Below are positions 4,485 through 62,284 of a stretch of 64,000 bases of DNA, one piece after another. The DNA lies in the NCBI GenBank assembly GCA_035620375.1, contig DASPGX010000028.1, positions 2,974-66,973 of the forward strand. The letters are read 5' to 3'. The stretch's first letter is position 1; the number at the start of each line of letters is the position of its first letter. A model generated the notes under the pieces. The model worked only from the letters and a program-made list of their open reading frames with translations. It did not search any database and had not been told where the DNA came from. Position numbers and translations under genes: made by a program. The stretch comes from Minisyncoccota bacterium (GTDB lineage Bacteria; Patescibacteriota; Minisyncoccia; 2-02-FULL-40-12; GWA2-44-9).

Positions 4485-4529
4485 CCTATATACTGAACGG
4501 CTCATCATATGAGCCGTTCAGTATATAGG
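4485..4529. repeat. Intergenic palindromic element copy 1 (core AACGGCTCAT-cat-ATGAGCCGTT)
   Basis: 45-nt near-perfect palindrome cctatatactgaacggctcat-cat-atgagccgttcagtatatagg. Shares its core with elements at 14824, 46536 and 62251. Confidence 0.6.
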
Positions 4530-4649
4530 TACGGTGAATTCTAAAGTTATCTACATACCACTTGCGGAGGGTATGCTATCATCCAAGTGCAACCTGGTAA
4601 CGCAAAAGCGCTTGTGAACCAAGCGTTTTTGCGTTTTAATGAGGAAACG

Positions 4650-7091
4650 ATGGAGCGCTCGTACGACCCTTCTTCCCTTGAGAAGAAGTGGCACGAACAG
4701 TGGCAGGACGCCGGACTCTACAGGACTCCCGATTCCGAAAAGGAGCGGGAGAATTTCATGTTGCTGACGGAATTTCCGTATCCGTCGGGCAATCTCCATA
4801 TCGGACACTGGTACGCCTTCGCGTTGCCGGACATGCTCGCGCGGTATTTGCGCATGACCGGCAGGAACGTCCTGTATCCCATCGGCTTTGACGCGTTCGG
4901 ATTGCCGGCCGAGAACGCCGCCATCCAGCGCGGCGTTCATCCGGAGGCGTGGACCCGGGAAAATATCGCGACCATGACGGAGCAGCTCCGCTCCATGGGG
5001 GCGTCGTTCGACTGGTCGCGGGCGGTTTCCACCATTGACCCGGCATATTACCGGTGGACGCAGTGGATGTTCCTCCGCTTTTTTGAAAAGGGCCTTGCCT
5101 ACAGGGCACGGACGACGGTCAACTGGTGTCCGAAAGACAAAACTGTCCTTGCCAATGAGCAGGTCGTCGACGGCGCCTGTGACCGGTGCGGCACGGCGGT
5201 TCAGCAGCAGGAGCGCGAACAGTGGATGCTCAAGACGACGGCGTACGCGGCTGAATTGGCTTCGGACCTTCAGGGGCTGGATTATCCCGAATCCACCAAA
5301 GCCGCCCAGCGGAACTGGATAGGGCCGAGCGAGGGCGCGGAAATCATTTTCCGGCTCAATGTACCGGGCCAGGACGACGGAAAGCACAGCGTGGCCGTCT
5401 TCACGACGCGGCCCGACACGCTGTTCGGCTGTACCTACCTTGCGGTTTCTCCCGAGCTGGCGAAGAAGTGGATGGACGTCGGGTGGGAAGCCCCGGACGC
5501 GGTCCGGGCGTACGTGGACGATGCGTTATCGCGGCGCGAGCTGGAACGCCTTGAGCGGGAAAAGACGGGCGTGGACAGCGGAGTAGCCGCCATCAACCCC
5601 GTTAACGGCGGGAAGGTGCCGGTCTGGGTTGCTGATTACGTGTTGGGCTCCTACGGTACCGGCGCCATCATGGCCGTTCCGGCGCACGACGAACGCGATT
5701 TTGAGTTCGCGGAGAAATTCGGCCTGCCCGTACGACAGGTAATCGAACCGGCCGGAGGAGACGATTCGTCCGGGGGCTCCGTCTATGCCGGAGAAGGCGT
5801 GCTTACGAACTCTGGGCCGTATGACGGTTTGGATTCCGCGCAGGCGCGAACGAAGATTACCGCAGAACTCGCTTCCAAGGGTCACGGTTCAGCCCGCACG
5901 ACATACCGTCTCCGCGATTGGATATTGTCCCGTCAGCGCTACTGGGGGTGTCCGATTCCGCTCATTTCGTGCAAGGAGTGCGGATTTGTCCCTGTTCCCG
6001 ACGAACAGCTGCCCGTCGAACTTCCTCCGCTGGACGACTTCAGGCCCGCCGATGACGGACGCTCTCCGCTCGCCAAGGCCGCGGGGTGGGTGAAAGCCGC
6101 ATGTCCGAAGTGCGGCGGAGACGCCGAGCGTGAAACCGATACGATGGATACCTTCGTGGATTCCTCGTGGTACTTCCTCCGGTACGCCGACCCGGACAAT
6201 GGCGGACGGTTCGCCGGTGAGGATAAAATCGGGGCATGGCTTCCCGTGCCGATGTACGTCGGCGGAGCGGAACACAATACGATGCACCTGCTGTATTCGC
6301 GGTTCTGGACGCGTGCGCTGAACGGCCTGGGCCTGGTGCCGTTCGCCGAGCCGTACCTGGCGCGGAGGAACCACGGCGTAATCCTCGGTCCGGACGGGCA
6401 GAAGATGTCCAAGTCGCGCGGGAACGTTATCGACCCCGACGAGCAGGTGGCCAAGTACGGCGCGGACACGGTGCGTATGTACCTGGCGTTCATGGCGCCG
6501 TACGAGCAGGGCGGACCGTGGGATCCCAAGGGCATCACCGGGGTGCACCGGTTCCTCAAGCGCTTCTGGGCGTTCGTCCATGACCGCTGGGAAAGCGCGG
6601 ACGGAGCGGACAGCGAAGATGCCGCAAAGGCGGTTCACCGGGCGAACCGGGACATCGGCGACGATTTGGCGAACCTCCGCTTTAATACGGCGGTTTCTTC
6701 GGCGATGATAATGCTCAATGCGCTTGAGACGGAAACAAAAGTCTCGCGGGACCTTCTCCGCCGGATGGTGCGCATCCTCGCGCCGATGGCCCCGCATATG
6801 GCCGAGGAACTCTGGCGTGGGACGCTCGGCGAACATGAGTCGGTCCACGTACAGAAATGGCCGGAGCCCGAGGAGGACATTCTGCGGGAGGACGAGTACG
6901 AACTGCCGGTTCAGGTGAACGGGAAACTGCGGGGGAGAATCGTCGTCGGACGCACCGATGACGAACGGACGGCGGTCGCGAAAGCGCTGCAATCCCCTGA
7001 TATTTTGCGGATTATCGGGGAGCAGTCCCCGAAAAAGACCGTATTTGTCGCCGGACGGATGCTCAATATCCTTGTGGATGAGAGCCATTGA
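4650..7091 (+). CDS. leuS: Leucyl-tRNA synthetase
   Basis: NLHIGH and KMSKS class I signatures with LeuS-specific editing/CP1 architecture. GAGGA RBS 6 nt upstream of the ATG at 4650. The ORF-track start at 4587 is an upstream in-frame extension. Confidence 0.95.
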   Translation: MERSYDPSSLEKKWHEQWQDAGLYRTPDSEKERENFMLLTEFPYPSGNLHIGHWYAFALPDMLARYLRMTGRNVLYPIGFDAFGLPAENAAIQRGVHPEAWTRENIATMTEQLRSMGASFDWSRAVSTIDPAYYRWTQWMFLRFFEKGLAYRARTTVNWCPKDKTVLANEQVVDGACDRCGTAVQQQEREQWMLKTTAYAAELASDLQGLDYPESTKAAQRNWIGPSEGAEIIFRLNVPGQDDGKHSVAVFTTRPDTLFGCTYLAVSPELAKKWMDVGWEAPDAVRAYVDDALSRRELERLEREKTGVDSGVAAINPVNGGKVPVWVADYVLGSYGTGAIMAVPAHDERDFEFAEKFGLPVRQVIEPAGGDDSSGGSVYAGEGVLTNSGPYDGLDSAQARTKITAELASKGHGSARTTYRLRDWILSRQRYWGCPIPLISCKECGFVPVPDEQLPVELPPLDDFRPADDGRSPLAKAAGWVKAACPKCGGDAERETDTMDTFVDSSWYFLRYADPDNGGRFAGEDKIGAWLPVPMYVGGAEHNTMHLLYSRFWTRALNGLGLVPFAEPYLARRNHGVILGPDGQKMSKSRGNVIDPDEQVAKYGADTVRMYLAFMAPYEQGGPWDPKGITGVHRFLKRFWAFVHDRWESADGADSEDAAKAVHRANRDIGDDLANLRFNTAVSSAMIMLNALETETKVSRDLLRRMVRILAPMAPHMAEELWRGTLGEHESVHVQKWPEPEEDILREDEYELPVQVNGKLRGRIVVGRTDDERTAVAKALQSPDILRIIGEQSPKKTVFVAGRMLNILVDESH

Positions 7092-7206
7092 CACGGCCCC
7101 GCATGAGTTGCTATAATAATAGGTAGCGGTCGTACGACATCTAATCTGTCCGCCGATGGCGGAGCGTGCCACAGGGCATGCACCGGCCGCCGGCAGACCT
7201 TCCGAA

Positions 7207-7548: not shown

Positions 7549-7564
7549 TCGCTTCACGAAAGCA

Positions 7565-9838: not shown

Positions 9839-9865
9839 ATAGCCAATCAGTTCCATTCCTATTAA

Positions 9866-11364
<1,499 letters not shown>

Positions 11365-13591: not shown

Positions 13592-13752
13592 GACGGAACT
13601 CCTTGGATTTGAATGGACCTGTCCTGCCGACAGGCGGACGGGAACACTATGCCAAAGCGTCCGATAAAGGGCAACGATACGCCACGCTGTCAATTGTGCT
13701 GTATGTTCATGCGTGATAGGGAAAGGTGTTCCTCACATCATAGGAGGTAGTG

Positions 13753-14733
13753 ATGGCAACGGTAAATCGCGAGCAGGTCAGCCGTGTGGCGGCCTATCTG
13801 AAGGCAAACCCACCCGAGGGTTCCGGCCTGAATTTCTACAGTGTGCAGACGCCCAAGGGCGAGCTTGTTCTGGACCGGATGTACCCGCCGGTGAACCATC
13901 CGCATGCCGTCGACTTCTTTTTCCTGGCGTGCCTGCACCAGTACGGGTTCTGGTGGGGAGATTCCCGGGGTTACCGTGAGCCGATGTACGGGAATCTCGG
14001 CGAAAAGCGCCTGAAGGGCTCGGATCTTCTGTGGGGCCTATTCCTACGGGCTTTGGATTCCGAAGAGCTCTGGGACCCGAAGTACCTTGCGGATATTACC
14101 CCGCGCCAGCTGGCCGATGTCATGTCCGACGACGAGGCGACACCATGGCCGAATTTTGAGGAGCGGGTGCATCTCACTCAGCGCTACGGTCGGTGGCTCG
14201 CGAGCCGCAACCTGAACCCGCTGAACATCGTGGCCCAGGCGAACAGCACCAATAGCCCGCTTCGGGGCTTCCGTCTTATCATGGACATGGACCGTGGCCT
14301 GAACCCGTGGGCGGACGACCGGCTGGAGAAGAAGCAGCTTCTTCTGGCGATGGCGTTGGCCAACCGTCCCGAGCGGTTCCTCAAGGTTGCGCCCGGCGAG
14401 GAATGGCCGCCTATCGTGGACTACCACCTCATGCGGGTGTGTCTGCGTCTGGGATTCGTGGACATCGGCTCCGCGAACATCGCCCGGAACACTGAGCGGC
14501 TCTGGGCATCGGCCGAAGAGGAGCAAGCGATACGTGTGGGGACCCGTGATGCCGTAGAGCAACTCATCCGGGAATCGGGCCTGACGATGGCCCAGGTGGA
14601 CGAAACGCTCTGGATGGCGCGCAAGTACTGTCCGGAGACGGAGAGTCCCGACTGCGACAAGTGTCTGTTCGGTTCGGTCTGTCCCCGATGGACCGGGCTC
14701 TTCCAGCCGGTCATCCGCACGACGGCCTACTGA
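13753..14733 (+). CDS. HhH-GPD-like glycosylase superfamily protein with EndoIII-type [4Fe-4S] cluster loop (C-x6-C-x2-C-x5-C)
   Basis: C-terminus CPETESPDCDKCLFGSVCP carries the four-Cys spacing of the EndoIII/MutY FCL motif. AGGAGG RBS 5 nt upstream of the ATG at 13753. Confidence 0.45.
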   Translation: MATVNREQVSRVAAYLKANPPEGSGLNFYSVQTPKGELVLDRMYPPVNHPHAVDFFFLACLHQYGFWWGDSRGYREPMYGNLGEKRLKGSDLLWGLFLRALDSEELWDPKYLADITPRQLADVMSDDEATPWPNFEERVHLTQRYGRWLASRNLNPLNIVAQANSTNSPLRGFRLIMDMDRGLNPWADDRLEKKQLLLAMALANRPERFLKVAPGEEWPPIVDYHLMRVCLRLGFVDIGSANIARNTERLWASAEEEQAIRVGTRDAVEQLIRESGLTMAQVDETLWMARKYCPETESPDCDKCLFGSVCPRWTGLFQPVIRTTAY

Positions 14734-14739
14734 CGGCAA

Positions 14740-14772
14740 CGCCCTCCGCATTTCGCGGAGGGCGTCTTCGTT
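14740..14772 (+). terminator. Rho-independent terminator
   Basis: cgccctccgc-atttc-gcggagggcg followed by tcttcgttt. Confidence 0.5.
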
Positions 14773-14823
14773 TCAACGGCTCACGTCTCGGCGAGGGTCC
14801 CGTGAGGGTCGCCCCGAGGGGCT

Positions 14824-14870
14824 CCCAAATAAATCAACGGCTCATCTCATGAGCCGTTGATTTATTTGGG
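14824..14870. repeat. Intergenic palindromic element copy 2 (core AACGGCTCAT-ctc-ATGAGCCGTT)
   Basis: cccaaataaatcaacggctcat-ctc-atgagccgttgatttatttggg has perfect 22-bp arms and lies between convergent genes. Confidence 0.6.
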
Positions 14871-14921
14871 ATACGGGTGGCGACCCCACTTGGGTCGCTG
14901 TCGAGCCGTTGAACGGGTGGG

Positions 14922-15665
14922 CTACTTAATCTGCCATGTCAGCGTTACGTTCACGCTGATTTCGTTTTCGCCCACGGGAATCTCCGGCAGGGGGGCGGTT
15001 CCGCCGCCGATATCCATGGCATCAGACTCCAAGGCGCGGAACATCACCGGATATCCGCCGGTGTCCTCGCCGAAATTGATGATGCGGCCCAGACGGATGC
15101 CCAGCTGACGCTCGAGCGCCTTTGCCTTGTCCTTGGCGTCGGCGATTGCCAGCGCCCGTGCTTCCTCGCGGAGCTTATCCGGGTCGTCGATGGTCAGCTG
15201 CAGATTGTTCACCTGGTTCGCCCCGGCACCGACCACGCCGTCCAGAATGACGTCGGTTTCCTCAAGGTTGCGGATTTTCACCTCAATGCTCTGGTTCACC
15301 TGGTATCCGGTGATGACGGGCTGGCCGCCCCGCGGATACGTATACTGCGGGTAGATGTTGTATCCGGACGTTTTGATGTCGCGCTCTTCAATGCCCCGGT
15401 CACGGAGAAACTTCACGACCGCCTCGGACCTGCGGCTGTTCTCATTCTGGGCTGATTCCGAGTTAGCCGCTTCCGTCACGATGGACAGGCTGACGACGGC
15501 CACGTCGGGAGCGGCGTTCACCGTTCCCGTCCCGGAGAACGAGACAGTGTTCGTCGTGGTCGCCGTGTTCAGCGTCCGGCTCGTCAGGACCCCGAGGAAC
15601 AGCACCCCGACAACCGAAAGGGCGATGACCGTCCATCCGAGAATCTTCTTCTGCAGTGGTTCCAT
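14922..15665 (-). CDS. SIMPL-domain (DUF541 / BP26-like) secreted protein
   Basis: Signal anchor followed by the GYQVNQSIEVKIRNLEE...ARALAIADAKDKAKALERQLG... SIMPL pattern. Confidence 0.65.
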   Translation of the reverse strand: MEPLQKKILGWTVIALSVVGVLFLGVLTSRTLNTATTTNTVSFSGTGTVNAAPDVAVVSLSIVTEAANSESAQNENSRRSEAVVKFLRDRGIEERDIKTSGYNIYPQYTYPRGGQPVITGYQVNQSIEVKIRNLEETDVILDGVVGAGANQVNNLQLTIDDPDKLREEARALAIADAKDKAKALERQLGIRLGRIINFGEDTGGYPVMFRALESDAMDIGGGTAPLPEIPVGENEISVNVTLTWQIK

Positions 15666-18195: not shown

Positions 18196-19230
18196 ATGGC
18201 CACCAATATTGCAATCAACGGTTTCGGGCGTATCGGACGGGCGTTTTTCAAGCTGGCGCTGACGAAGCCGGAGCTGAATATCGTGGCCATCAATGACCTC
18301 GGCGACCCCGAGAACCTCGCGTATCTCCTCAAGTTTGATTCCGCGTACGGCCGTTACGGCCACGAGGTCTCGGTAAAGGAGGCCGAAGGGTCCAAATACC
18401 TGGTGGTCGGAGGGCAATCGTTCCTGTTCATTCAGGAGAAAGAACTGGCGAAGCTTCCCTGGAAGGATTTGGGCGTGGATGTTGTCGTGGAGGCGACTGG
18501 CGTGTTCACGAAATACGAACAGGTGCAGTCCCATGTGGATGCGGGCGCAAAGCGCGTCGTGCTGACCGCCCCGGCAAAGGACGAGGACGGCCCGGACGCC
18601 AAGACGGTGCTCATGGGCATCAACGCCGAGGAGCTGAAGACGTGCACGCTGTCATCCAACGGCTCGTGCACCACGAATTCGGCATCACCGGTGCTGCAGA
18701 TTCTTACCGAGACCGTCGGGGTGGAAAAGGCATTTTTGAACACGACGCACGGTTATACGGCGACGCAGGCGCTCATCGACGGGCCGACCAAGGGCAAGGA
18801 CTACCGCAAAGGGCGCGCAGCTGCGGCGAACATCATCCCTGCGACGACCGGCTCCGCCATTGCGGTCGGCCGTGCGGTCCATGCGGTAACGGGCAAGTTT
18901 GACGGTATCGCGATGCGGGTGCCCGTCCTGACCGGCTCGCTGTCCGCCATCGTTTTCGTTTCTTCAAAGAAAACGAATGCGGAGGAAATCAACGAGATTC
19001 TGCGCAAAGCGGCCGTGGAGTCCCGCTGGGCCGGTATCTTCAGGGCGTCCGACGAGCAGCTGGTATCCAGCGATATCGTCGGGGACCCCTATGCCGCTAT
19101 CGCCGACCTGACGCTGACGACGGTCGTGGATGGTAACCTGTGCGCCGTATACTCCTGGTATGACAACGAATTCGGATACACGAACTCGTTGGTCATGCAC
19201 GTGTTGGAGGTGGCGAAAGCCCTTGCATAG
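18196..19230 (+). CDS. gap: Glyceraldehyde-3-phosphate dehydrogenase
   Basis: NGFGRIGR NAD loop and S-C-T-T-N catalytic block (SSNGSCTTNSASP). Confidence 0.95.
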   Translation: MATNIAINGFGRIGRAFFKLALTKPELNIVAINDLGDPENLAYLLKFDSAYGRYGHEVSVKEAEGSKYLVVGGQSFLFIQEKELAKLPWKDLGVDVVVEATGVFTKYEQVQSHVDAGAKRVVLTAPAKDEDGPDAKTVLMGINAEELKTCTLSSNGSCTTNSASPVLQILTETVGVEKAFLNTTHGYTATQALIDGPTKGKDYRKGRAAAANIIPATTGSAIAVGRAVHAVTGKFDGIAMRVPVLTGSLSAIVFVSSKKTNAEEINEILRKAAVESRWAGIFRASDEQLVSSDIVGDPYAAIADLTLTTVVDGNLCAVYSWYDNEFGYTNSLVMHVLEVAKALA

Positions 19231-20093
19231 TGAGCGAATATATCTCCGAAAAGAAGATAAAGGAGCTGGAGAAGAAGGCCAACGATATCCGGCAGGATAT
19301 CGTGAGTATGCTTGTGGAGGCCGGCTCCGGCCATACGGCGGGTCCGCTTGGTCTGGCGGACATCTATACGGCGTTCTATTTTCACATCCTTAACCACGAC
19401 CCCAAGCGGCCCGACTGGGAGGAGCGTGACCGGTTTATTGTATCCAACGGGCATACGTGCCCCGTCTGGTACGCGACCCTGGCGCACGCGGGGTACTTTC
19501 CGAAAGAGGAACTGAAGACGTTGCGGAAACTGGGTACGCGTCTGCAGGGCCATCCCGAGCGCGGCCATCTTCCCGGCATTGAGAACACCTCGGGTCCTCT
19601 GGGCCAGGGATTGGGTCAGGCAGCCGGCATGGCGTATGCGGCGCGCATGGATGCGCGGAAGTTCCGCGTCTACTGTCAGATGTCCGACGGAGAGCAGGAA
19701 TCGGGCGTGCTCTGGGAGTCGGCGATGTTCGCGGGCAAAAACAAGCTCAACAACCTGACCGCGTTCATTGACCGCAATAACATCCAGATCGACGGGATGA
19801 CGGAGGACATCATGCCCCTGGAGCCTCTCCGGGACAAATGGGAGGCGTTCAACTGGAACGTGCTGGAGGTGGACGGGCACAACATTGAAGCGTTCGTGGA
19901 CGCGGTGCAGGAGGCTAAGGCGACGTACGAGAAACCGACCGTCATCATCGCGCATACGATACCCGGTAAGGGCATCAAGGAGATTGAATTTGACTACAAA
20001 TGGCATGGGATTCCCCCCAAGCCCGACCAGGCCAAGGCGTTTCTGCAGGAACTGCGGACGTTGGGCGGAAAGATTACGAGCGAGCATGAATGA
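19230..20093 (+). CDS. Transketolase, N-terminal (TPP-binding) subunit of a split enzyme
   Basis: GSGHTAGPLGLADIYTAFYF...GHTCP...LGQGLGQAAG TPP motifs. GTG start overlaps the gap stop (TAGTG). Confidence 0.9.
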   Translation: MSEYISEKKIKELEKKANDIRQDIVSMLVEAGSGHTAGPLGLADIYTAFYFHILNHDPKRPDWEERDRFIVSNGHTCPVWYATLAHAGYFPKEELKTLRKLGTRLQGHPERGHLPGIENTSGPLGQGLGQAAGMAYAARMDARKFRVYCQMSDGEQESGVLWESAMFAGKNKLNNLTAFIDRNNIQIDGMTEDIMPLEPLRDKWEAFNWNVLEVDGHNIEAFVDAVQEAKATYEKPTVIIAHTIPGKGIKEIEFDYKWHGIPPKPDQAKAFLQELRTLGGKITSEHE

Positions 20094-20241: not shown

Positions 20242-20673
20242 ATGCTACGCGATATCACAATGATAATCTCGGTCATGGTGTCCATCGGCTCCATCGGTTT
20301 CGGGTTCTACAAGAATATCGAGGCATCCAACAACCGTGCGTTCATCTACGAACAGGCGTACCGCATTGTGGGACAGATTAATGACGCTCCCATTTCCGAA
20401 CAGGCGAAAACGCAGCTGACGACGGATGCGCTTTCCGGATTGTCCGCACCGCCGCCGGTCATCGACCTGTCGCAGTCCAGCGCCGATGTCGGCGACGACG
20501 GCGTCTGCACGCCCAACGAGGAGTCGTTCTGTACGCAACTGGCGGACCGGCTGGGACGGGAGAACGTCGCCTGTGCGCGCGGCAATGAGCCGACCGGACC
20601 CGTCTGTGCGCAGGCGGCACGGACGAGGACTGAGATACTTCAGGAGGGCTGTTTTCTCTGCTTTGCGCCATGA
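20242..20673 (+). CDS. Small membrane-anchored Cys-rich protein, paralogue A (inserted between the transketolase halves)
   Basis: N-terminal TM, shared SGL(S/P)APPPV(I/L)(D/G)(L/I)(D/S)FS block, then a C-terminal Cys cluster. Its stop overlaps paralogue B's start. Confidence 0.45.
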   Translation: MLRDITMIISVMVSIGSIGFGFYKNIEASNNRAFIYEQAYRIVGQINDAPISEQAKTQLTTDALSGLSAPPPVIDLSQSSADVGDDGVCTPNEESFCTQLADRLGRENVACARGNEPTGPVCAQAARTRTEILQEGCFLCFAP

Positions 20674-21044
20674 ACGTACGTCTTGCATTCCCGGTGACCA
20701 TGTTCGTCCTCGCGGGCGTATCGTTCGGCTACGGCGCCTGGCAGCATCTCGCGGCGCGGAGCGCGCGTGCGGCGGACGCGAGCCGGTTGGCGTACATCCT
20801 GCAGACGATTGAGCATTCCGACCTGTCCCGTGCGGGCAAGCAGGATTTGTACGTTTCCATCGCATCGGGCCTGCCGTCGGCGCCTCCGGTTCTGGGTATA
20901 GATTTTTCCGGCTCATTCGCGGCCCTTCCGGGAGGAGATTCGTGCGTGAGCGACGGCCAGCGTGCGTTGTGCCGTGCGCTGATTACCACCGGAGCCGATG
21001 ACGCAACGCGCGGTGCGGTATGCGGCGGGTGCAGCCCCGAATAG
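20670..21044 (+). CDS. Small membrane-anchored Cys-rich protein, paralogue B
   Basis: Same architecture as 20242..20673. Stop TAG is 2 nt before the start of the transketolase C-subunit. Confidence 0.45.
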   Translation: MNVRLAFPVTMFVLAGVSFGYGAWQHLAARSARAADASRLAYILQTIEHSDLSRAGKQDLYVSIASGLPSAPPVLGIDFSGSFAALPGGDSCVSDGQRALCRALITTGADDATRGAVCGGCSPE

Positions 21045-21046
21045 AC

Positions 21047-22063: not shown

Positions 22064-22090
22064 AAATGACCTCCGGGGAGGTCATTTTCA

Positions 22091-25230: not shown

Positions 25231-25281
25231 ATTCTACCACAAAGAGGCCCCGAAGGGCCTCTTTGTATGCTGACCGAGAAA

Positions 25282-25737: not shown

Positions 25738-25882
25738 GTATGAATGTGTTGGTTAGTGAAATACGAAGATACTGTCTGGGGCGCCATGCATGGAGCGTCC
25801 CAGCTCCTATCGACCATAGGCACTATTGATTATACCAGCCGCAGCATCGGCGGTTATCCACACGAATTGAAGCTGATTGCCG

Positions 25883-32570: not shown

Positions 32571-32587
32571 GTTCCCTCCTTGGGAGG

Positions 32588-32977: not shown

Positions 32978-33014
32978 TAGTGTAAGTATATCATACGCCC
33001 CGGGTTTGGCGCGC

Positions 33015-35762: not shown

Positions 35763-35824
35763 GCTGGTCTTCCGTGCCGCGTTCATACACAGAAGAAACC
35801 CCGCGTTGTGCGGGGTTTCGGGAC

Positions 35825-45689: not shown

Positions 45690-45744
45690 GAGTATCTCCA
45701 CACCAAACACCCCGCTCCGGCGGGGTGTTTGGTATAATGAGGAC

Positions 45745-46535: not shown

Positions 46536-46578
46536 CCAAATTTTAACGGCTCACTTGGTGAGCCGTTAAAATTTGATT
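46536..46578. repeat. Intergenic palindromic element copy 3 (core AACGGCTCAC-ttg-GTGAGCCGTT)
   Basis: ccaaattttaacggctcac-ttg-gtgagccgttaaaatttg(a). The core has a compensatory T-to-C / A-to-G change that keeps pairing. Lies between convergent genes. Confidence 0.6.
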
Positions 46579-46592: not shown

Positions 46593-46721
46593 CTACTTAT
46601 TCACCTGCTTCCAGAGCCAGGCGATGAGCAGGGCGCCGATGACGACGAGCTCAATCTGGAACAGTGACCCGAAGACGAGTCCGCCGCCCCAACCGCCCAT
46701 CATGCCTTCATATCCCATCAT
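46593..46721 (-). CDS. Candidate 42-aa Met/Gly-rich single-TM mini-protein immediately downstream of copB
   Basis: Minus-strand ORF MMGYEGMMGGWGGGLVFGSLFQIELVVIGALLIAWLWKQVNK. Too short for the ORF track. Mx2-3M motifs resemble Cu(I)-binding Met motifs. Confidence 0.3.
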   Translation of the reverse strand: MMGYEGMMGGWGGGLVFGSLFQIELVVIGALLIAWLWKQVNK

Positions 46722-46737
46722 GGATGAAGATATTAGG

Positions 46738-48861
46738 TTAGTACAACGACTGCCGCTTCAATAATACCGCATTGAACGCAACGATGACCGTGGACACCGA
46801 CATCAGAATTGCCGCCACGGCCGGTTGGAGCAGAATGCCCCGTGATGCCAATACTCCCGCCGCCAGCGGTATAGCGACGATGTTATATCCTGCCGCCCAC
46901 CAGAGATTCTGGACCATTTTCGCATAGGTCAGGCGCGAGAGCCGGACGATGCGCGGGATATCGCGCGGGTCGTTCCGTACGAGGATGATGCCCGCGGACT
47001 CTATGGCGACGTTCGTTCCCGCACCGATGGCGATTCCGACGTCGGCCTGCGTCAGGGCCGGCGCGTCATTGATGCCGTCACCGACCATGGCAACCTGCGC
47101 TCCGCGCGCCTGCAGCTCCCTGACCCTTGCCGATTTCTCATCAGGTTTGACGCGGGCGAAGTACTCGTCAATCCCGAGTTCCTCGGCGACCCAGGATGCG
47201 ACCTCGTCCGCATCCCCGGTCACCATGGCGACCTTCACCCCGAGCTGTTTCAGCTCGGCCACCGCTTCACGGGATTCGCGGCGGATGACGTCTGCGAACG
47301 CAAATGCACCGATGAACGAGCCGTCGTGGAGTACATAGATTACGGTTTTTCCCTTGGACGCTTCCGCCTTCATGGCCGCCTGCAGTTCCGCCGGTATATC
47401 CTGGGTCCCAATGACGCCGTGTCCGCCGATAGTGATGTCAGAGCCGGAAACGCGTGCCTGAGAACCCTTCCCGGGCAAGCGTCGGAAATCTTCAGCATCG
47501 GGAAGCGTGATGCCCATCTCCTGCGCTCGCGCGACAAGCGCCTTCGCAATGGGGTGCTCTGACCGCGCATCCGCAGCAGCGCCGAGCATGATGAGCGTCC
47601 GCTTATCCGTTCCGGGCGCCGGCCAAGCATCCGTCATGCCGTATGTGCCCGTCGTCAACGTCCCGGTCTTATCAAACAGGACCGTGTCAATACTCCGTGC
47701 GGCCTCCAGTGCGAGGCGCTGGCGGACGAGGAAACCATTCTGCGCGGCCTTCGTGGTGGAGATGGATGCGACCAGCGGAACGGCAAGTCCCAGCGCATGC
47801 GGGCAGGCGATGACCAGCACCGCTACGAAGCGTTCCACGGCGAATCCCGCACCTGCGCCGGCGGCGAGCCATCCCGCAAGCGTCGTGGAGCCTCCGATGA
47901 CCGCGACATAGGTGAGCCACAGTGCGGCACGGTCTGACAGTATCTGAAGCCGGGACTTGGATGCCTGCGCCTCGGCGACCAGGCGCATAACGCCGGCCAG
48001 GAAGGTATGCTCTCCGATAGCTTCTACGCGGACGGTGAGCGGACCGTCACCGTTGACCGTACCGGCGATGACCATATTGCCCCTTGTCTTCGGTACCGGC
48101 CGTGATTCGCCGGTTGCAAGCGATTCGTTCACGTCGGAATTCCCTTCGGTTACCTGTCCGTCCGCGGGAATCTTTCCTCCCGGCCGTACGAGGACAAGGT
48201 CGTCCTTCGTAAGTTCACTGAGCGGAATTTTTACAGTTCTTCCGTTCCGGATAATCTCCGCAGTGTCCGGCAAAAGTTTCGACAACTCCTTCAATGCGCC
48301 TTGTGCGCCCTTGACCGCGCGCATCTCCAGCCAGTGGCCCAGAAGCATGACGGTGATAAGCGTGGCAAGTTCCCAGAAAAGGGTTTCCGTATTGCCCAGG
48401 AGCGTATTGACCGCGCTGTAGCCGAACGCCGCGGTGATGGCGATGGCGATGAGGGTCATCATACCCGGCAGACGGGCACGCAGCTCGCGCCATGCGCTGG
48501 CCAGGAAGACCCATCCTCCGATGAAGAAGATGAGCGTGCCGAGCGCGGCGGGAACATATGCTGAGCCGGGGAAGTCCGGAGGCGACCAGCCGGTGAGCGT
48601 CGGAACAATATCCGAGTAGAGGACCACGGGAATGCTCAATATGAGCGATGTCCAGAACTTCCGTTTGAATGCATCGGTGCTGTGGCCGGCGTGCTTGCCG
48701 TGTACGCCGGCTGCCCCCTCGTGCGCCCGCTCATCGGGTGAGGCGGGAACAAGGCTCATTCCGCATTCGGGGCACATGCCCGGCCGTTCCTGGCGGATTT
48801 CCGGGTGCATGGGACACGTATAGTCTTTCGTGTGCATGATGATTGGGATTATACCCCGCAC
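46738..48861 (-). CDS. copB: Copper-translocating P1B-type ATPase, CopB-like (CPH motif) with N-terminal CxxxHP...CPxCGM metal-binding domain
   Basis: N-terminal YTCPMHPEIRQERPGMCPECGM. TM6 reads ACPHALGLA (CPH). DKTGTLT phosphorylation site. GDGINDAP hinge. Confidence 0.9.
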   Translation of the reverse strand: MRGIIPIIMHTKDYTCPMHPEIRQERPGMCPECGMSLVPASPDERAHEGAAGVHGKHAGHSTDAFKRKFWTSLILSIPVVLYSDIVPTLTGWSPPDFPGSAYVPAALGTLIFFIGGWVFLASAWRELRARLPGMMTLIAIAITAAFGYSAVNTLLGNTETLFWELATLITVMLLGHWLEMRAVKGAQGALKELSKLLPDTAEIIRNGRTVKIPLSELTKDDLVLVRPGGKIPADGQVTEGNSDVNESLATGESRPVPKTRGNMVIAGTVNGDGPLTVRVEAIGEHTFLAGVMRLVAEAQASKSRLQILSDRAALWLTYVAVIGGSTTLAGWLAAGAGAGFAVERFVAVLVIACPHALGLAVPLVASISTTKAAQNGFLVRQRLALEAARSIDTVLFDKTGTLTTGTYGMTDAWPAPGTDKRTLIMLGAAADARSEHPIAKALVARAQEMGITLPDAEDFRRLPGKGSQARVSGSDITIGGHGVIGTQDIPAELQAAMKAEASKGKTVIYVLHDGSFIGAFAFADVIRRESREAVAELKQLGVKVAMVTGDADEVASWVAEELGIDEYFARVKPDEKSARVRELQARGAQVAMVGDGINDAPALTQADVGIAIGAGTNVAIESAGIILVRNDPRDIPRIVRLSRLTYAKMVQNLWWAAGYNIVAIPLAAGVLASRGILLQPAVAAILMSVSTVIVAFNAVLLKRQSLY

Positions 48862-49823
48862 GCGCCTCCGCTGCGACCTTGGACCGGTTCAACTTCGCTC
48901 AAGATGTTCCGGTAGCCGGTTCCGCTGGAGAACTGTGCGCCCAGAAGTTCACGGGGGTCAGCTGACTCCCAGGTCCGCCCCTTCATGTCCAGGTATTTTG
49001 CGATGGTCAGGTACGTGTCGGGGAACCAATACGCGTTCACCTGCAGGGCGACGCGGTACATCTCCTCCTCGCCCGCGCCGTTCGCGGCCATCAGTTCCAA
49101 CAGGCCCAGCATCGCCATGCCGTGATTACAGTCGGGGAAGTACGTGGAATTCCCGCAGCACGGGCGGTAGACGTTTCGCGCAACTGATTCCACGAGGGCC
49201 TGCTGTTCCGAGGTCAGTTTCACGTAGCGGTGTCCGGAATAGTGGTCCATCGCGTCGCCCACGGCGATGCTCCAGCCGCCCGTCGAAGCAAACCGGCCCG
49301 CACCGCCGTATTGGGGGTCCGTCATCGGACCTTCTTCAAGAACGGGATTTGTGTTCGCCAGCCCGAACGCCCAGAGCAGGTTCAGGATGATTCCCGCGTT
49401 GTTGGCGTCCATGCGGATGGTGTCGGCCCGTCCCTCCAGGAGGGTCCGTTCGTAGGGATTCAGACCTCCGCGCGACTCATACAAGGCTTCAAATGCCTGC
49501 CGGTCAATGACGCCGTCGGCGACCATCCGGGCGCCCAGGTCTCCCCATGAGATGGGCAATGCAATGCCGTCCCGGGGAAGGACCGTCTCCTCGAATGCGG
49601 CGCTTTCAGGCGCCGTCGTACGGTCACCCCGCGGGGCGTACGGCAAAAGCCACGCGCCGCCTATGACGGCGGCCCCGGCCAGTGCGCCGAACAGAAACGT
49701 CGTCATCGGTTTCGGTGCCGGCCGTTGCGCGCCGGACGCGGAGGAATGTTCCGCGCAATGTTCATTAATTCTCTCTGACTGCAGATTCCCGCCCTCGGCT
49801 GATTCATGGTGCATACAATGCAT
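48849..49823 (-). CDS. Hypothetical exported protein with His/Cys-rich N-terminus and CCGNSTYFPDCNHGMAM cluster (putative metal-binding)
   Basis: MHCMHHESAEGG...EHCAEH, then a hydrophobic signal-like helix. Several internal Cys/His/Met clusters. Sits inside the copper/redox island. Confidence 0.4.
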   Translation of the reverse strand: MHCMHHESAEGGNLQSERINEHCAEHSSASGAQRPAPKPMTTFLFGALAGAAVIGGAWLLPYAPRGDRTTAPESAAFEETVLPRDGIALPISWGDLGARMVADGVIDRQAFEALYESRGGLNPYERTLLEGRADTIRMDANNAGIILNLLWAFGLANTNPVLEEGPMTDPQYGGAGRFASTGGWSIAVGDAMDHYSGHRYVKLTSEQQALVESVARNVYRPCCGNSTYFPDCNHGMAMLGLLELMAANGAGEEEMYRVALQVNAYWFPDTYLTIAKYLDMKGRTWESADPRELLGAQFSSGTGYRNILSEVEPVQGRSGGACGV

Positions 49824-49832
49824 GGTGGTGAT

Positions 49833-50201
49833 TTAACAACATTCCTTGAGCTTTCGTTCCGCTTCCGCGACGGACCAGTTCCTCACCGTCCCCGGATGTC
49901 CGCGTCGCTCCGTGAACGCGACGGTGATGAGCGCGGCTCCTATCACGGCCAGGGCCGCGAAATGCCATGCCTGAACGGCGGCCGCATACGCGGCGGCCAG
50001 ACCGGCAGGAACGAAGACCAGCATGAAGGCCGTGCGGCGTGCCGCCGCCGTGCGCTCACGGAGCAGATAGGCGATGCCGACCGCGGAACCGCCTATCAAT
50101 GTAGCAATGAGCGCGGCATCCACGGCATGACCGTCCGCCCGCCAGAGCAACAGCGCAATCCAGGTACCCGAGACGATAGTGCATATCGGACAGATTTTCA
50201 T
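49833..50201 (-). CDS. Small multi-TM membrane protein ending in Cys-Cys
   Basis: MKICPICTIVSGTWIALLLW... has three hydrophobic helices. This start abuts the ccdA stop. C-terminus ...KLKECC. Confidence 0.35.
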   Translation of the reverse strand: MKICPICTIVSGTWIALLLWRADGHAVDAALIATLIGGSAVGIAYLLRERTAAARRTAFMLVFVPAGLAAAYAAAVQAWHFAALAVIGAALITVAFTERRGHPGTVRNWSVAEAERKLKECC

Positions 50202-50203
50202 GG

Positions 50204-50983
50204 TCAGAGGATAAGGATGAGTACGCCCAGTCCGAGCATGGCGATTCCCGTCCACAGCCGCATTGACCGGACATTGGACTTCTTCCATGCCTCCAGCCGT
50301 TCCACGACCGTCCGGTTCCCCGCGATGGCGAGAACAACCAGGAGCGGGAATACGAAGACCGCATTGTACAACAGGAGATAGCTGAATCCTTTCAGATAGG
50401 TCGCCGAATCATGCAGGAGCCCGAGCACCATCAGGTACGGGCCGCCGGTGCAGGGGAATTCGCAAAGTCCGACCAGCGCGCCGAGTCCGAACGCGGCGGG
50501 TAGCGACGCCCGGCCCATCAGTTCCGCCATCTTCCGGTGCGCCGCATGCGGCACGCGCAGTTTGATGGGGAATGCGGGGAAGAACTCATTGACGATGTTC
50601 ACGATGCCCCAGGCGATGAGCAAACCCGCGCCGACCTTCCCCATGAAATGGGGCGTGTTGAACAGGTGGAGGGTGCCCAGGAGTCCGAGTCCGATGGCCA
50701 GATAGGAGAGGAAGATGCCTGCCACGTACGCTCCGCCGACGGCGAACAGGCGCCCGCGCACCACCCCGAGCCCCAAGAGGACCGCGATGGTTACCAGGAG
50801 GATGGCGAACGCGCACGGATTGATGCTGTCCAGGAGCGCCGAGATGAGTACAAGCGGAAGCAGGACCGTTCCGCCGTCGCTGATGCTCCATGCGAACCGT
50901 GTTCCGAGGTCGCCGCGGAGGAACAGGACGACTGCGGCAAGCGCGACAGCGGCGCTGATTGCAGCGATGAGTTTCCGGTTCAT
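50204..50983 (-). CDS. ccdA: Cytochrome c-type biogenesis / thiol-disulfide electron transporter CcdA (DsbD family)
   Basis: SINPCAFAIL (first redox Cys) and LCEFPCTGGPY (second) with 6 TM helices. Confidence 0.8.
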   Translation of the reverse strand: MNRKLIAAISAAVALAAVVLFLRGDLGTRFAWSISDGGTVLLPLVLISALLDSINPCAFAILLVTIAVLLGLGVVRGRLFAVGGAYVAGIFLSYLAIGLGLLGTLHLFNTPHFMGKVGAGLLIAWGIVNIVNEFFPAFPIKLRVPHAAHRKMAELMGRASLPAAFGLGALVGLCEFPCTGGPYLMVLGLLHDSATYLKGFSYLLLYNAVFVFPLLVVLAIAGNRTVVERLEAWKKSNVRSMRLWTGIAMLGLGVLILIL

Positions 50984-50984
50984 G

Positions 50985-51482
50985 CTACGGGGTCACGTTC
51001 GCCGTGAACGAAACGACGACGGGTGTGCCCGCATCGTTTTCCATGGTGACCGTGCGTTGTATCGGTCCGACGCCCGACGGGCCGTGTGCGGCCGGGTCAA
51101 ACGTGATGATGAGCGAGGCGGTATCCTGCGGAGCGACGGATGCGTTGACGCGGGGGATGAATCCGTGCCCGAGCATTCCGTACGGTCCGTACTTGCGTCC
51201 GGCATGGTCAAGGGAGACTGACGTGCACATGCATGACGTGTACGTCTTGCCGAGGGTTACCGATGAGGCGCCGGTATTGGTGACCGCTATGCGGTGCCGG
51301 ACGGTTCCGGCGGCCATGGAGATGGTTCCGAAGTCAAACGACGTTTCCGACGGTTCCAGGGGACCAGGAGCGGCGATATCCGACATGGGCGTCGCCAGCG
51401 GAGTACCGCCGGGACGCGCCGCCCATGCCAGAATCCCGGCGGCCGCCAGGGTTCCGATAAGGACGAAGAGGATTGTTTTCAT
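50985..51482 (-). CDS. DUF1573-domain secreted protein
   Basis: Signal peptide, then FDFGTISMAAGTVRHRIAVTNTGASSVTL...SCMCTS, which follows the DUF1573 consensus. Confidence 0.6.
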   Translation of the reverse strand: MKTILFVLIGTLAAAGILAWAARPGGTPLATPMSDIAAPGPLEPSETSFDFGTISMAAGTVRHRIAVTNTGASSVTLGKTYTSCMCTSVSLDHAGRKYGPYGMLGHGFIPRVNASVAPQDTASLIITFDPAAHGPSGVGPIQRTVTMENDAGTPVVVSFTANVTP

Positions 51483-51567
51483 GATGCATGGTGGGTTGAT
51501 ACGACAAACAAACCCCGGAAGGGGTCTGTGGACGCACGCCGAAGGAGGGATACGTTTCCGGCGTGCG

Positions 51568-51951
51568 CTACACGCCTGTTGGGCTGTGGTTCAGGCGGAT
51601 GTTCCAGCGGAAAACCGGAAATCGGGAGAGCGACGCCTCAAACGGAAGGGTCCGGACGAGGGATGTATGCCACAAACCGCCATCGGCTCGTACCGGGGAG
51701 ACCCGCCAAATCAATACCGCACCGAACGCCGCGAGAAGTAGGGTCAGAGCCGACAGGACGGGAACGGATGCCAGAACGCGCTGCAGAGAGCTGAGGTGCT
51801 GGGCCGCCGAACCGATGGAAAGACACGGCAATGCGGAAATAGAGGAGAGGAAACAATCAGTCCCATGCGCGAGATTTTCGCTCATGGCGAACGGACCGGC
51901 GATGCCGACGACGGTGAGCGCAAGGATGACGAATAGGGAGAGCGTTTTCAT
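51568..51951 (-). CDS. Hypothetical small membrane protein
   Basis: MKTLSLFVILALTVVGIAG signal-like N-terminus and a second hydrophobic helix. Weak. Confidence 0.25.
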   Translation of the reverse strand: MKTLSLFVILALTVVGIAGPFAMSENLAHGTDCFLSSISALPCLSIGSAAQHLSSLQRVLASVPVLSALTLLLAAFGAVLIWRVSPVRADGGLWHTSLVRTLPFEASLSRFPVFRWNIRLNHSPTGV

Positions 51952-51967
51952 GAATATGGCCATTATA

Positions 51968-58882: not shown

Positions 58883-58946
58883 GAATGGCAAATGGCGAAC
58901 GGTATTTCGGACTTCGCCATTCGGAACTCTTACTTCTTACTTTCGC

Positions 58947-59405: not shown

Positions 59406-59573
59406 GATGCGAACTGTTTGCCCAAGTCCAAGGCGTGAGCGAGCATCGGAGCGAGTCGTACCTGGAGGTACGGCGAGCGAGAAGCACAGCGGCAACGCAG
59501 GAATTGGGCAAACCTGAAAGGCGCGATGCCGTCCGGATTTGAGGGACGGCTGCGCAGGCGCATTCCGGGAACC

Positions 59574-60815: not shown

Positions 60816-60894
60816 AGTTATCCACATCCTTGTACACAGTCTGTTATGCGCGGTTTGCGCGCGTTTTTTTATTGTGATAGACCGCAGGTGAACC

Positions 60895-62064
60895 ATGACG
60901 CAGATAAGGCCTCAATTCGAGACATTCGCGCGCATTAAGGTGTGCGGCGTCGGCGGGTCGGGAAATAACGCGCTGATGCGGATGATTGAATCGCGCATTC
61001 AGGGCGTTGAATTCATCGCCATTAATACCGACGCGCAGGCCCTGCACAACAACCCGGCCTCGGTGAAAGTGCACGTCGGCCGGTCGCTTACGCGCGGACT
61101 GGGCGCGGGCATGAACGCGGAAATCGGCCGCCAGGCGGCGATTGATACGAAGGAAGACATCCAGGCAGCGCTCAAGGGCGCGGACATGGTGTTCATCGCG
61201 TGCGGCCTGGGAGGCGGCACGGGCACCGGCGCCTCGCCCGTGGTCGCGGACATCGCGCGCGAGCTCGGCGCGTTGGTCGTCGCGGTGGTGACGAAACCGT
61301 TCCTCTTTGAGGGCGCCCAGCGCATGCGGGTCGCCGAAGAGGGCCTGAACATCCTCAAGGACAAGGTGGATTCGCTCATCACTATTCCGAATGACCGCAT
61401 CCTCTCCATCATCGACCGGAACACGCCCATGACGCAGGCATTCCAAATCGTGGACGACGTGCTCCGGCAGGGCGTCCAGGGCATCTCGGACCTCATCACG
61501 GACCATTCGCTCATCAACCTGGACTTCGCGGACGTCAAAGCCGTCATGCTCAATTCGGGCCCGGCGCTCATGGGCATCGGCCTGGCGACAGGAGACGACC
61601 GCGCCATTGAGGCGGCAAAGCAGGCGATTTCCTCCCCGCTGGTTGAGGTATCCATAGAAGGTGCCAAAGGAGTCCTGCTGAACGTTTCCGGCGGTGCCGA
61701 CCTGACCATGTCCGAAGTCAACGACGCGGCGCGGGTCATCACCGAGCACGTGGACCGCGACGCGAAAATCATCTTCGGTGCCGGCATCACGGAGAAGCTT
61801 AAGAAGGGCGAGGTGAAGGTCACCGTGGTCGCAACCGGATTTTCGGGCGATTATCAGCCCTCCGCGCGGACGGTGGTTGCCGGCGGCTCCTCCCCGGCGC
61901 CCGACACGGACTATCTGCGTGCCGAACGGCCGTCGTTCCAGCCGGCCGCGGCTCCTCAGCGTCCCAACGGAGGCGAGCAGCCCCGTAGGCAGATAGTGGA
62001 CGAGAAGGCGACGGATGAATTCGACATCGATATTCCGGCGTTCATCAGGCGAAAAATGAGGTAG
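60895..62064 (+). CDS. ftsZ: Cell division GTPase FtsZ
   Basis: GVGGSGNNALMRM, the tubulin signature GLGGGTGTGASPVVA, and NxDFAD. Confidence 0.95.
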   Translation: MTQIRPQFETFARIKVCGVGGSGNNALMRMIESRIQGVEFIAINTDAQALHNNPASVKVHVGRSLTRGLGAGMNAEIGRQAAIDTKEDIQAALKGADMVFIACGLGGGTGTGASPVVADIARELGALVVAVVTKPFLFEGAQRMRVAEEGLNILKDKVDSLITIPNDRILSIIDRNTPMTQAFQIVDDVLRQGVQGISDLITDHSLINLDFADVKAVMLNSGPALMGIGLATGDDRAIEAAKQAISSPLVEVSIEGAKGVLLNVSGGADLTMSEVNDAARVITEHVDRDAKIIFGAGITEKLKKGEVKVTVVATGFSGDYQPSARTVVAGGSSPAPDTDYLRAERPSFQPAAAPQRPNGGEQPRRQIVDEKATDEFDIDIPAFIRRKMR

Positions 62065-62250
62065 AACTCCGCGGAGATATCCTTGTGCGGGCACGAATCA
62101 ACAAGCCCCCGTCGGGGCTTTGTTGTTCTCCTTCTCGCTTCCGGCATTGCTATGTCTCGGCTGCGAAAGTCCCTTACAAGGACATCCCCGCGCCGTTCAA
62201 TCGGCGTCGGGGAGGGTGAGGTGTACTGAATGTAGCCCGCCAAGGCGGGC

Positions 62251-62284
62251 CTTTTGACGGCTCATCTGATGAGCCGTTAAAAAA
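62251..62284. repeat. Intergenic palindromic element copy 4 (core GACGGCTCAT-ctg-ATGAGCCGTT)
   Basis: cttttgacggctcat-ctg-atgagccgttaaaaaa. Preceded by a second hairpin, gcccgcc-aag-gcgggc. Lies between convergent genes. Confidence 0.6.

Follow-up and report, generated by a model that had tools for sequence, protein, structure and literature searches.

Dispersed intergenic palindromes with a fixed inner stem in Patescibacteria: a candidate terminator-type hairpin module

Four intergenic palindromes that share the core AACGGCTCAY-N3-RTGAGCCGTT are spread over a 64,000-nucleotide stretch of a Minisyncoccota bacterium genome (contig DASPGX010000028.1 of assembly GCA_035620375.1, positions 2,974 to 66,973; hereafter the window, 61% GC). 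They raise the question of what these elements are, what they do at the ends of genes and how they came to be there. For the candidate phyla radiation, to our knowledge, almost nothing is known of transcription signals, of repeats or of mobile DNA. An initial annotation of the window had taken the sites for bidirectional intrinsic terminators or for protein-binding elements resembling repetitive extragenic palindromes (REPs). We give about an even chance to the reading that all four are members of a dispersed terminator-type hairpin module, with a fixed inner stem and a patchy distribution in Patescibacteria.

The core occurs exactly three times in the window (4496-4518, 14836-14858 and 46545-46567) and a fourth time with one mismatch (62256-62278; GACGG..., which gives a G:T pair), while dinucleotide-preserving shuffles of the window lead us to expect 0.00 and 0.02 such matches, respectively. 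The proposal of a four-copy family is thus upheld, and the coordinates given initially were accurate to within 1-3 nt. Copy 1 (4485-4529; CCTATATACTG-AACGGCTCAT-CAT-ATGAGCCGTT-CAGTATATAGG) forms a perfect 21-bp stem, copy 2 (14823-14871; TCCCAAATAAATC-AACGGCTCAT-CTC-ATGAGCCGTT-GATTTATTTGGGA) a perfect 23-bp stem and copy 3 (46537-46575; CAAATTTT-AACGGCTCAC-TTG-GTGAGCCGTT-AAAATTTG) a perfect 18-bp stem, and copy 4 (62252-62282; TTTT-GACGGCTCAT-CTG-ATGAGCCGTT-AAAA) has 15-nt arms with one G:T pair; no strand is assigned to any of them. The centre of each inverted repeat is 3 nt (1-3 nt in copy 4). Three of the four are the longest perfect short-range inverted repeats of the window, and all four fold into very stable hairpins on both strands (z-scores −5.7 to −9.3), with the stable GC-containing stem (15-23 bp) and short loop of an intrinsic terminator. 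The flanks are copy-specific and yet self-complementary, as had been claimed, for 11, 13, 8 and 4 nt beyond the 23-mer in copies 1 to 4. When the four copies were aligned on both strands together with 60 nt to either side, no conservation appeared outside the palindrome, and a covariance model built from 72 family members returned the same four sites and no degenerate copies in the window. Seven of the eight occurrences of AACGGCTCA in the window lie in the palindromes; the eighth is part of an outer pair of plus-strand half-sites, TTCAACGGCTC (14772-14782) and GAGCCGTTGAA (14903-14913), that brackets copy 2 across 120 nt and encloses it together with two small hairpins. This outer pair may be an older copy with a disrupted centre.

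Window genes were defined as open reading frames (ORFs) chosen by third-position GC content and Pfam matches. Every copy follows a stop codon at the 3' end of a gene, and copies 2, 3 and 4 lie between convergent genes, in agreement with the initial annotation. Copy 1 occupies a tandem spacer, 16 nt past the stop of a LytR_C gene (3719-4468, plus strand) and ∼120 nt ahead of the leuS ATG (about 4650), and is the sole hairpin directly downstream of the LytR_C gene. Copy 2 separates the convergent Q_salvage (13750-14733, plus strand) and SIMPL (14922-15665, minus strand) genes and is the only window copy with a 3' flank that is T-rich on both strands. The canonical intrinsic terminator of Q_salvage (14739-14765, plus strand; ACGCCCTCCGC-ATTTC-GCGGAGGGCGT followed by CTTCGTTT) stands upstream of the copy 2 complex. 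The 80-nt spacer that separates a CBS gene (stop at 46512, plus strand) from a convergent 42-aa membrane ORF (46593-46721, minus strand), which comes after a P-type ATPase gene, has copy 3 as its sole hairpin. Copy 4 lies between the convergent ftsZ gene (60895-62064, plus strand) and a 96-aa ORF (62346-62636, minus strand) and is itself enclosed by two canonical terminators. The T-run of the plus-strand terminator (62235-62255; GCCCGC-CAAG-GCGGGC followed by CTTTT) is the left flank of copy 4, and the plus-strand A-run of the minus-strand terminator (62283-62334; stem 62296-62310 / 62320-62334, minus-strand T-run 62283-62295) is its right flank.

The suggestion of a dispersed family was borne out far more widely than in the window. 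A scan for the exact 23-mer in one genome per species (185,579 species) found the core in at least 101 DNA stretches, mostly from metagenome-assembled genomes (MAGs) of Patescibacteria of differing classes and GC contents (33-62%). The retrieved stretches, from which copy numbers per MAG are lower bounds, hold at least 18 copies in 102 kb of Saccharibacteria SRP136066_co1_227 (54% GC), at least 17 in 86 kb of Jacksonbacteria SI072_bin11 (41% GC), at least 10 in Patescibacteria MAG257 (40% GC) and at least four each in Paceibacterota SMAG_U15170 (62% GC) and Saccharibacteria SRP077602_co6_407 (33% GC). Three Yanofskybacteria MAGs, one Kazan MAG and several further Saccharibacteria MAGs have at most two copies each among the matches listed. 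The density in the window is ∼1 copy per 16 kb. Genomes differ in their predominant variant, which is GAAAG..CTTTC in one Saccharibacteria MAG and AAAATA..TATTTT in the Jacksonbacteria MAG. In one pair of the retrieved loci (loci carry L numbers below), L062 and L075, a contig binned under 'Bacteroidetes bacterium SI047_bin56' and one of Jacksonbacteria SI072_bin11 are identical around the palindrome, the former probably being mis-binned. No Rfam family reached the gathering score for any copy, and the only signals were generic long-hairpin (microRNA precursor) matches far under threshold. Literature searches returned no paper in which uptake sequences, intrinsic terminators or extragenic palindromes are connected with Patescibacteria, and a search with the raw sequence gave primer matches only. 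The repeat family is not described in the databases and papers searched.

Alignment of 72 copies gave the consensus AAAAnTA-AACGGCTCAY-NNN-RTGAGCCGTT-TAnTTTT. The 5' flank has A in 53-59% of copies at positions −8 to −3, T in 61% at −2 and A in 67% at −1, and the 3' flank is its mirror image, a T-tract. With an A-tract, a stem-loop and a T-tract in succession, the family has the layout of a bidirectional intrinsic terminator. Positions −1/+1 and −2/+2 are paired in 66/72 and 63/72 copies, by five to six types of base pair, and the observed flank covariation was reached by 0 of 500 shuffles. Pairing weakens outward from the core; the mean perfect extension past it is 4.25 nt, as compared to 0.95 nt when the flanks of different copies are paired with each other. 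The inner stem, (A)ACGGCTCA / TGAGCCGT(T), is fixed over 9 bp, the outer stem is site-specific, and there is scarcely any constraint on the loop or on its closing Y/R pair. The initial annotation had pointed to a compensatory change in copy 3. This T-A to C-G change, which falls at the closing pair, is real, but the pair is only loosely kept across the family (31 UA, 13 CG, 12 UG and 16 unpaired among the 72 members).

In 479 kb of carrier loci we count ∼8 true single half-sites against ∼15 expected for an 8-mer, so that half-sites on their own show no enrichment. Nearly all additional occurrences of ACGGCTCA or TGAGCCGT in these loci belong to palindromes with other loop lengths, to duplicated arms (L019, L027 and L086) or to pairs split by an insert (L069). 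Nested or disrupted copies (window 14772/14903, L015 and L069), together with the duplicated arms, indicate that the sites are prone to local rearrangement. A copy downstream of recA in two Saccharibacteria MAGs lies in an alignable block in which the 4-5 bp adjoining the core are GAAAG/CTTTC in one genome and TCAGA/TCTGA in the other, so that the differences are complementary on both sides. Around one copy in two Saccharibacteria MAGs we also observed a conserved intergenic block of ∼170 nt (L070 3687-3853, L023 2480-2648 and L052 3777-3921), which one of these MAGs has after recA and also after an IMPDH/GMP-reductase gene (87% identical). No Rfam family matches the block, which may represent a larger repeat or a gene for a small RNA.

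The occurrence of the core at random positions, including coding ones, at the frequency expected had been named at the outset as one observation that would speak against the initial interpretation. Copies are strongly intergenic: about five of ∼70 fall inside a called ORF, most of these ORFs being short and doubtful, although a crude ORF call marks ∼85% of the carrier sequence as coding. The classifiable copies occupy 37 tandem, 11 convergent and 3 divergent spacers, which corresponds to 0.22 copies per convergent, 0.17 per tandem and 0.07 per divergent spacer. The flanking genes are housekeeping genes, among them recA, ssb, ndk, secY, ftsZ, RNase III and release factor genes and a tRNA operon, and we found no functional theme shared by the neighbouring genes.

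We identified syntenic Paceibacterota contigs by protein searches with LeuRS, the CBS protein and FtsZ, all three of which are themselves 100% identical to proteins annotated as those of a Candidatus Paceibacterota bacterium. L183, L184 and L193 (54% GC) encode LeuRS and FtsZ proteins that are 67% and 86% identical to those of the window, and the CBS protein of L188 is 81% identical; the other syntenic relatives are L186, L194 and L195, and L187, L191, L192 and L196. These relatives and 80 metagenome loci found with FtsZ (∼523 kb, searched with the covariance model) contain no copies of the family, not even degenerate ones. At two of the four window sites the core can be seen as a discrete block that is present in one genome and absent from another. 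In the LytR_C-leuS spacers of L183 and L186 a conserved leuS leader directly follows the stop codon, and copy 1 lies in a 65-nt stretch (about 4468-4532) found only in the window. Downstream of ftsZ, L193 shares with the window two back-to-back canonical terminators, GTAG(T/C)CCGCC...GGCGG(A/G)C-CTTTTG on the plus strand and GCxxCGTGCCG...CGGCACG on the minus strand. In L193 they are joined as CTTTTG-GAAAAAGAAA; in the window 31 additional nt (62257-62287; ACGGCTCATCTGATGAGCCGT + TAAAAAATAA) stand precisely at the junction of T-run and A-run. It follows that the complementary TTTT/AAAA flanks of copy 4 were already part of the site. These indels show that the core spreads as a discrete unit.

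The site of copy 3 shows a different pattern. Downstream of the CBS gene there is a hairpin in every relative examined (L187, L188, L191, L192 and L193), and its stem is different in each. L193 (TAATAAAAAACTCCC-GTGA-GGGAGTTTTTTATTA), L191 (AAAAAATGA(C/T)CCCG...) and L192 (AAAACAAACGGACCG...CGGGCCGTTTGTTTT) have canonical terminators with A-tract, stem and T-tract; L187 has another GC stem; and L188 has ATAAACGGCTAAGTC-CACAGA-GACTTAGCCGTTTAT, with the AACGGCT/AGCCGTT base of the family and a different apex. Because all of these relatives have a hairpin at the CBS 3' site, copy 3 stands at a conserved terminator position.

Side observations were made in two of these spacers. The leuS leader contains a conserved hairpin at 4599-4635 (AACGCAAAAGCGCTTG / CAAGCGTTTTTGCGTT, followed by (A/T)TTT(T/A)) that ends ∼15 nt ahead of the leuS ATG; it is also present in L183 (about 10125-10160) and L186 (about 5425-5465), is near-identical in the three genomes despite LeuRS identities of just 66-68%, and could be an attenuator or translational operator. 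Beside copy 3, the block 46593-51967 (the 42-aa membrane ORF, a heavy-metal P-type ATPase, a 324-aa protein without a Pfam match and an SfLAP-like protein) separates the CBS gene from pth. The two genes are directly convergent in L191, L192 and L193, and the block is therefore a lineage-specific insertion with copy 3 at its edge.

The paired flanks had been read as a sign of selection on hairpin structure. The flanks do covary, but perfectly paired AT-rich outer stems are the general build of bidirectional terminators in this clade. They are found in unrelated terminators of the window at 22059-22092 (AATGAAAATGACCTCC/GGAGGTCATTTTCATT) and 45702-45733 (ACCAAACACCCCGC/GCGGGGTGTTTGGT) and in unrelated terminators of the relatives, such as the L193 hairpin TAATAAAAAACTCCC/GGGAGTTTTTTATTA, and the 5' arms of 121 perfect hairpins in 570 kb of control loci are predominantly A-rich. 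Since unrelated terminators share this property, and since the flanks of copy 4 were there beforehand, flank pairing alone is no proof of selection on the element. It is the shared inner stem, not the paired outer flanks, that sets the family apart. The site at 22059-22092 is in itself a very compact bidirectional terminator, a perfect palindrome with 16-bp arms (AATGAAAATGACCTCC-GC-GGAGGTCATTTTCATT) that holds the stop codons of both convergent genes, the C-terminal half of a transketolase and a UDG-family gene. The intergenic spacers of the clade also contain spacer-less perfect palindromes of 28-40 bp (window 3643-3670; L183 13131-13170 and 13214-13245; L186 7928-7955), each of them unique in sequence, as compared to a chance expectation of ∼0.06 per 64 kb for palindromes with 10-nt arms. 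This suggests that the clade generates or tolerates long perfect palindromes.

What would a terminator-type module with this anatomy do? It would have an AT-rich, site-specific outer stem in which an A-tract pairs with a T/U-tract, a GC-rich inner stem and a variable loop of 3-5 nt. Transcription arriving from either side would produce an RNA hairpin of 11-23 bp that ends or protects the transcript, as a terminator or as a stabiliser of the 3' end. Such a hairpin is predicted to be the main one for copies 1 and 3, whereas for copies 2 and 4 it would be a redundant back-up. We infer this function from the A/T-tract consensus of the family, the location at 3' ends and the positional equivalence of copy 3 with the terminators of the relatives, and also from the fact that copies 1 and 3 are the sole hairpins downstream of their genes. 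The shared stem would spread from terminator to terminator by copy-and-paste or short-patch conversion, for which A/T-tract microhomology, template switching at hairpins or a hairpin-specific enzyme are candidate routes.

The closest analogue in behaviour is the TRIT motif of Mycobacterium, a set of 147 palindromic, mostly bidirectional and sequence-conserved hairpins at gene termini whose sequence conservation its discoverers proposed to explain by a binding factor (Gardner et al. 2011, RNIE, PMC3152330). Like TRIT, the family consists of abundant, mostly bidirectional palindromic hairpins at gene termini that are conserved in both sequence and structure, in genomes that have canonical terminators as well. 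The two differ in sequence, to which there is no relation, and in distribution, TRIT being confined to one genus whereas the present core occurs in distant classes of Patescibacteria and not in close relatives. TRIT elements are positioned around −8 to the stop codon, inside the coding sequence, whereas the copies described here lie 16-190 nt downstream of stops, and the present family is fixed in its inner 9 bp only, with an outer stem that varies.

Several observations weigh against a terminator function. Ordinary bidirectional terminators resemble the family in having an A-tract, a GC stem, a short loop and a T-tract, and copy 3 replaces such a terminator of the relatives; unlike the family, they have no shared stem sequence, and unlike them the window copies lack a T-run that satisfies a terminator scan. 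A consensus terminator scan called none of the four copies, no passing T-run following the stem. The bidirectional-terminator interpretation of the initial annotation is thus supported by the family consensus and by the equivalence of the copy 3 site, and is not supported by the scan of any window copy. The tracts of copy 4 are reversed, the T-run preceding the stem and the A-run following it, and both copy 2 and copy 4 adjoin separate canonical terminators, so that few transcripts may arrive there. The deficit in divergent spacers is a trend and not significant (Fisher p = 0.08). Among copies in tandem contexts, G:U and A:C combinations on the sense strand number 35 and 29; G:U is thus not in excess over A:C, which gives no support to a role at the RNA level. 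Finally, the presence of the same 9-bp stem in Saccharimonadia and Paceibacteria points to a trans-acting factor or to horizontal spread.

In a second explanation, unlikely in our estimation but the strongest of the alternatives, the palindrome is a purely selfish mobile hairpin acting at the DNA level. It would resemble REPs and the doublets known as REPINs, or miniature inverted-repeat transposable elements (MITEs), would be mobilised in trans and would have no role in transcription, 3' spacers being occupied because insertion there is harmless. Such an element would account for the clean presence/absence indels at copies 1 and 4, for the insertion of copy 4 into an untranscribed gap between two working terminators and for a distribution that is patchy over distant lineages, with high copy number in few genomes and none in the ∼523 kb of relatives. 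It would also fit the nested or disrupted copies and arm duplications (window 14772/14903; L015, L019, L027, L069 and L086) and the predominance of genome-specific variants. On the other side, no transposase or Y1/HUH gene was found among the ∼50 window proteins scanned, and there is no transposase among the 25 commonest families of 150 copy-adjacent ORFs. Copies have neither an asymmetric tag of the GTAG type nor direct target-site duplications, viral contigs are free of them, and the A-tract/T-tract orientation of the family is what a terminator needs and is not expected of neutral insertion. With 0 matches in the viral contigs scanned, we also rejected a phage origin.

REPs have reported roles in 3'-end stabilisation and termination. 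Like REPs, bacterial interspersed mosaic elements and REPINs, the family consists of short multi-copy extragenic palindromes, mostly in 3' spacers and between convergent genes, with presence/absence polymorphism between relatives and genome-specific sub-variants. The many extragenic copies (at least 10-18 in three MAGs) and the insertion polymorphism at copies 1 and 4 are typical of REPs. Unlike these elements, the family has no GTAG/CGTC tag, its stems are perfect and not bulged, and neither REPIN doublets nor a REP-associated tyrosine transposase (RAYT) were detected. The flanks are symmetric, A-rich on the 5' side and T-rich on the 3' side; a GTAG near copy 1 belongs to the stop-codon context, and one near copy 4 is part of the neighbouring terminator. 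The cognate RAYT for which a search had been suggested (Y1 transposase, PF01797) was not found among the ∼50 window proteins scanned, and no transposase recurs among the 25 commonest Pfam families of the 150 copy-flanking ORFs. Of the REP-like character proposed initially, what survives is the loose sense of a dispersed palindromic unit with presence/absence polymorphism. Because the GTAG tag is absent, and no Y1 transposase was found among the window proteins scanned or the commonest families of the flanking ORFs, we rejected a classical REP/RAYT system, as well as a MITE: the unit in the window copies is the 23-nt palindrome only, with inverted and not direct flanks and nothing shared beyond.

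Somewhat less probable still is that the fixed 9-bp stem is the recognition site of a trans-acting factor transferred horizontally among Patescibacteria, either a nuclease/transposase or an uptake receptor. In the first form the enzyme would paste a palindrome of 21-23 nt into the centre of AT-rich dyads, for example back-to-back terminators; in the second the whole palindrome would serve as a dimeric DNA-uptake signal. Either form, if true, would explain an identical stem in genomes from 33% to 62% GC whose close relatives lack it, and a hairpin-specific nuclease/transposase would be a new way of seeding terminators.

It is improbable that the competence machinery of Patescibacteria (type IV pilus and ComEC) uses the family as a DNA-uptake signal, with inverted pairs that double as terminator stems. 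The idea has precedents, since inverted uptake sequences make terminator stems in Neisseria and Pasteurellaceae, and in Neisseria the inverted DNA uptake sequence (DUS) is found in the stems of about 55% of the terminators called with high confidence (Kingsford et al. 2007, PMC1852404). Natural competence by way of ComEC has been shown in Saccharibacteria (PMC10633639), the window contains a type IV pilus cluster, and an identical short sequence is found in lineages that could exchange DNA. The family resembles pairs of DUS or uptake signal sequences (USS) in having a fixed inverted pair of 9-10 nt as stem, A/T-tract flanks, and type IV pili and competence genes. Unlike the family, DUS and USS number at least 1000 per genome, are mostly single and often lie in genes, at ∼1 per kb as against ∼1 per 16 kb here. 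Half-sites of the family occur at or below chance and only the whole palindrome recurs (seven of eight in palindromes in the window; ∼8 singles against ∼15 expected in 479 kb), so the over-representation of single copies that marks DUS and USS is missing, and for this reason we rejected an uptake sequence as the main explanation. Coding sequence is free of copies except for chance matches, and the core is absent altogether from most related genomes.

A duplex operator for a dimeric DNA-binding protein, either a regulator or a nucleoid protein, is very improbable for the family as a whole. Inspection of the sequence shows perfect dyad symmetry, and the half-sites GGCTCA-N5-TGAGCC, 11 bp apart from centre to centre, would suit a helix-turn-helix dimer. 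Yet flank covariation preserves pairing whatever the sequence, a property of hairpins and not of operator half-sites; the loop is free of constraint, copies are mostly at 3' ends with divergent (promoter) spacers holding 3 of the ∼50 classified, and the neighbouring genes have no common function. We also rejected a promoter reading, for which there is a weak symmetric 9/12 match at copy 3 only and few copies in divergent spacers. An operator is plausible at one site outside Patescibacteria, where an identical 23-mer, AACGGCTCACAATGTGAGCCGTT (or with its loop inverted), lies ∼45 nt upstream of a Prx5-type peroxiredoxin gene in at least 25 species of Comamonadaceae. This single orthologous site, with the invariant loop CACAATGTG, accounts for ∼30 species of Comamonadaceae among the matches listed (Rhodoferax, Polaromonas, Comamonas, Hylemonella and Variovorax; L001, L007, L031, L041, L043, L080 and ∼25 other loci). 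A second hairpin (TGCAG...CTGCA) adjoins it, and the 23-mer there may be an operator or a leader structure. We treated the Comamonadaceae as unrelated to the dispersed family.

Least probable of all is that these are ordinary unrelated terminators with a stem in common by chance or convergence: by our own estimate the 185,579 genomes contain hundreds of millions of terminator hairpins, and single matches in Leclercia, Flavobacterium, Agitococcus, Pirellulaceae and the one Comamonadaceae site are compatible with chance, but four copies in 64 kb where 0 are expected and at least 10-18 copies in parts of single MAGs effectively refute it, and AACGG-based stems are rare in the control hairpins (5/121 in 570 kb, three of them the same site). 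The last figure also gives no sign of a general preference for AACGG-based terminator stems in Patescibacteria. Coding matches to the 23-mer were found in WS2 and Thermoplasmatales; because a hairpin needs only one arm to match, by our estimate, these and the scattered single matches fit chance.

With these alternatives weighed, we return to the terminator-type module and rate the family as dispersed palindromic terminator-like repeats that stand outside the TRIT, DUS/USS and classical REP families. The separation from DUS/USS and REP rests on half-sites that are not over-represented and on searches for a GTAG tag and a RAYT that found neither.

The window contains several other features of interest. 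A complete 16S rRNA gene (9860-11362) has no adjoining 23S rRNA gene, which indicates that the rRNA genes are unlinked, and is only 73% identical to the 16S rRNA gene of Patescibacteria MAG257 (L044). Two halves of a split transketolase (19230-20093 and 21020-22063) lie ∼0.9 kb apart, with an ORF without a Pfam match (20242-20673) in the gap. The type IV pilus cluster (23554-34652, minus strand) encodes pseudopilins that carry N_methyl motifs, a T2SSF protein resembling PilC, and a PilB ATPase (30819-32570) with a response-regulator receiver domain fused at its N-terminus. A separate response regulator (32588-33166) and a 7TM histidine kinase (33015-34652) are encoded next to it. The genes at 34656-40121 (minus strand; aromatic amino acid ammonia-lyase, a 511-aa protein without a Pfam match, a ThiF-family protein and a nitroreductase-like protein) are syntenic in L187 and may form a small biosynthetic or modification cluster, unusual in a reduced genome.

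For the study of such elements, copy 4 carries a caution, that 'compensatory' flank pairing can come from the A/T tracts of neighbouring terminators without selection on the element. The CBS 3' site offers a natural case of terminator hairpin replacement, with five different hairpins in five related genomes. The module itself is a ready marker for horizontal exchange or for a hairpin-binding factor, and a candidate portable terminator for the new genetic systems of Saccharibacteria.

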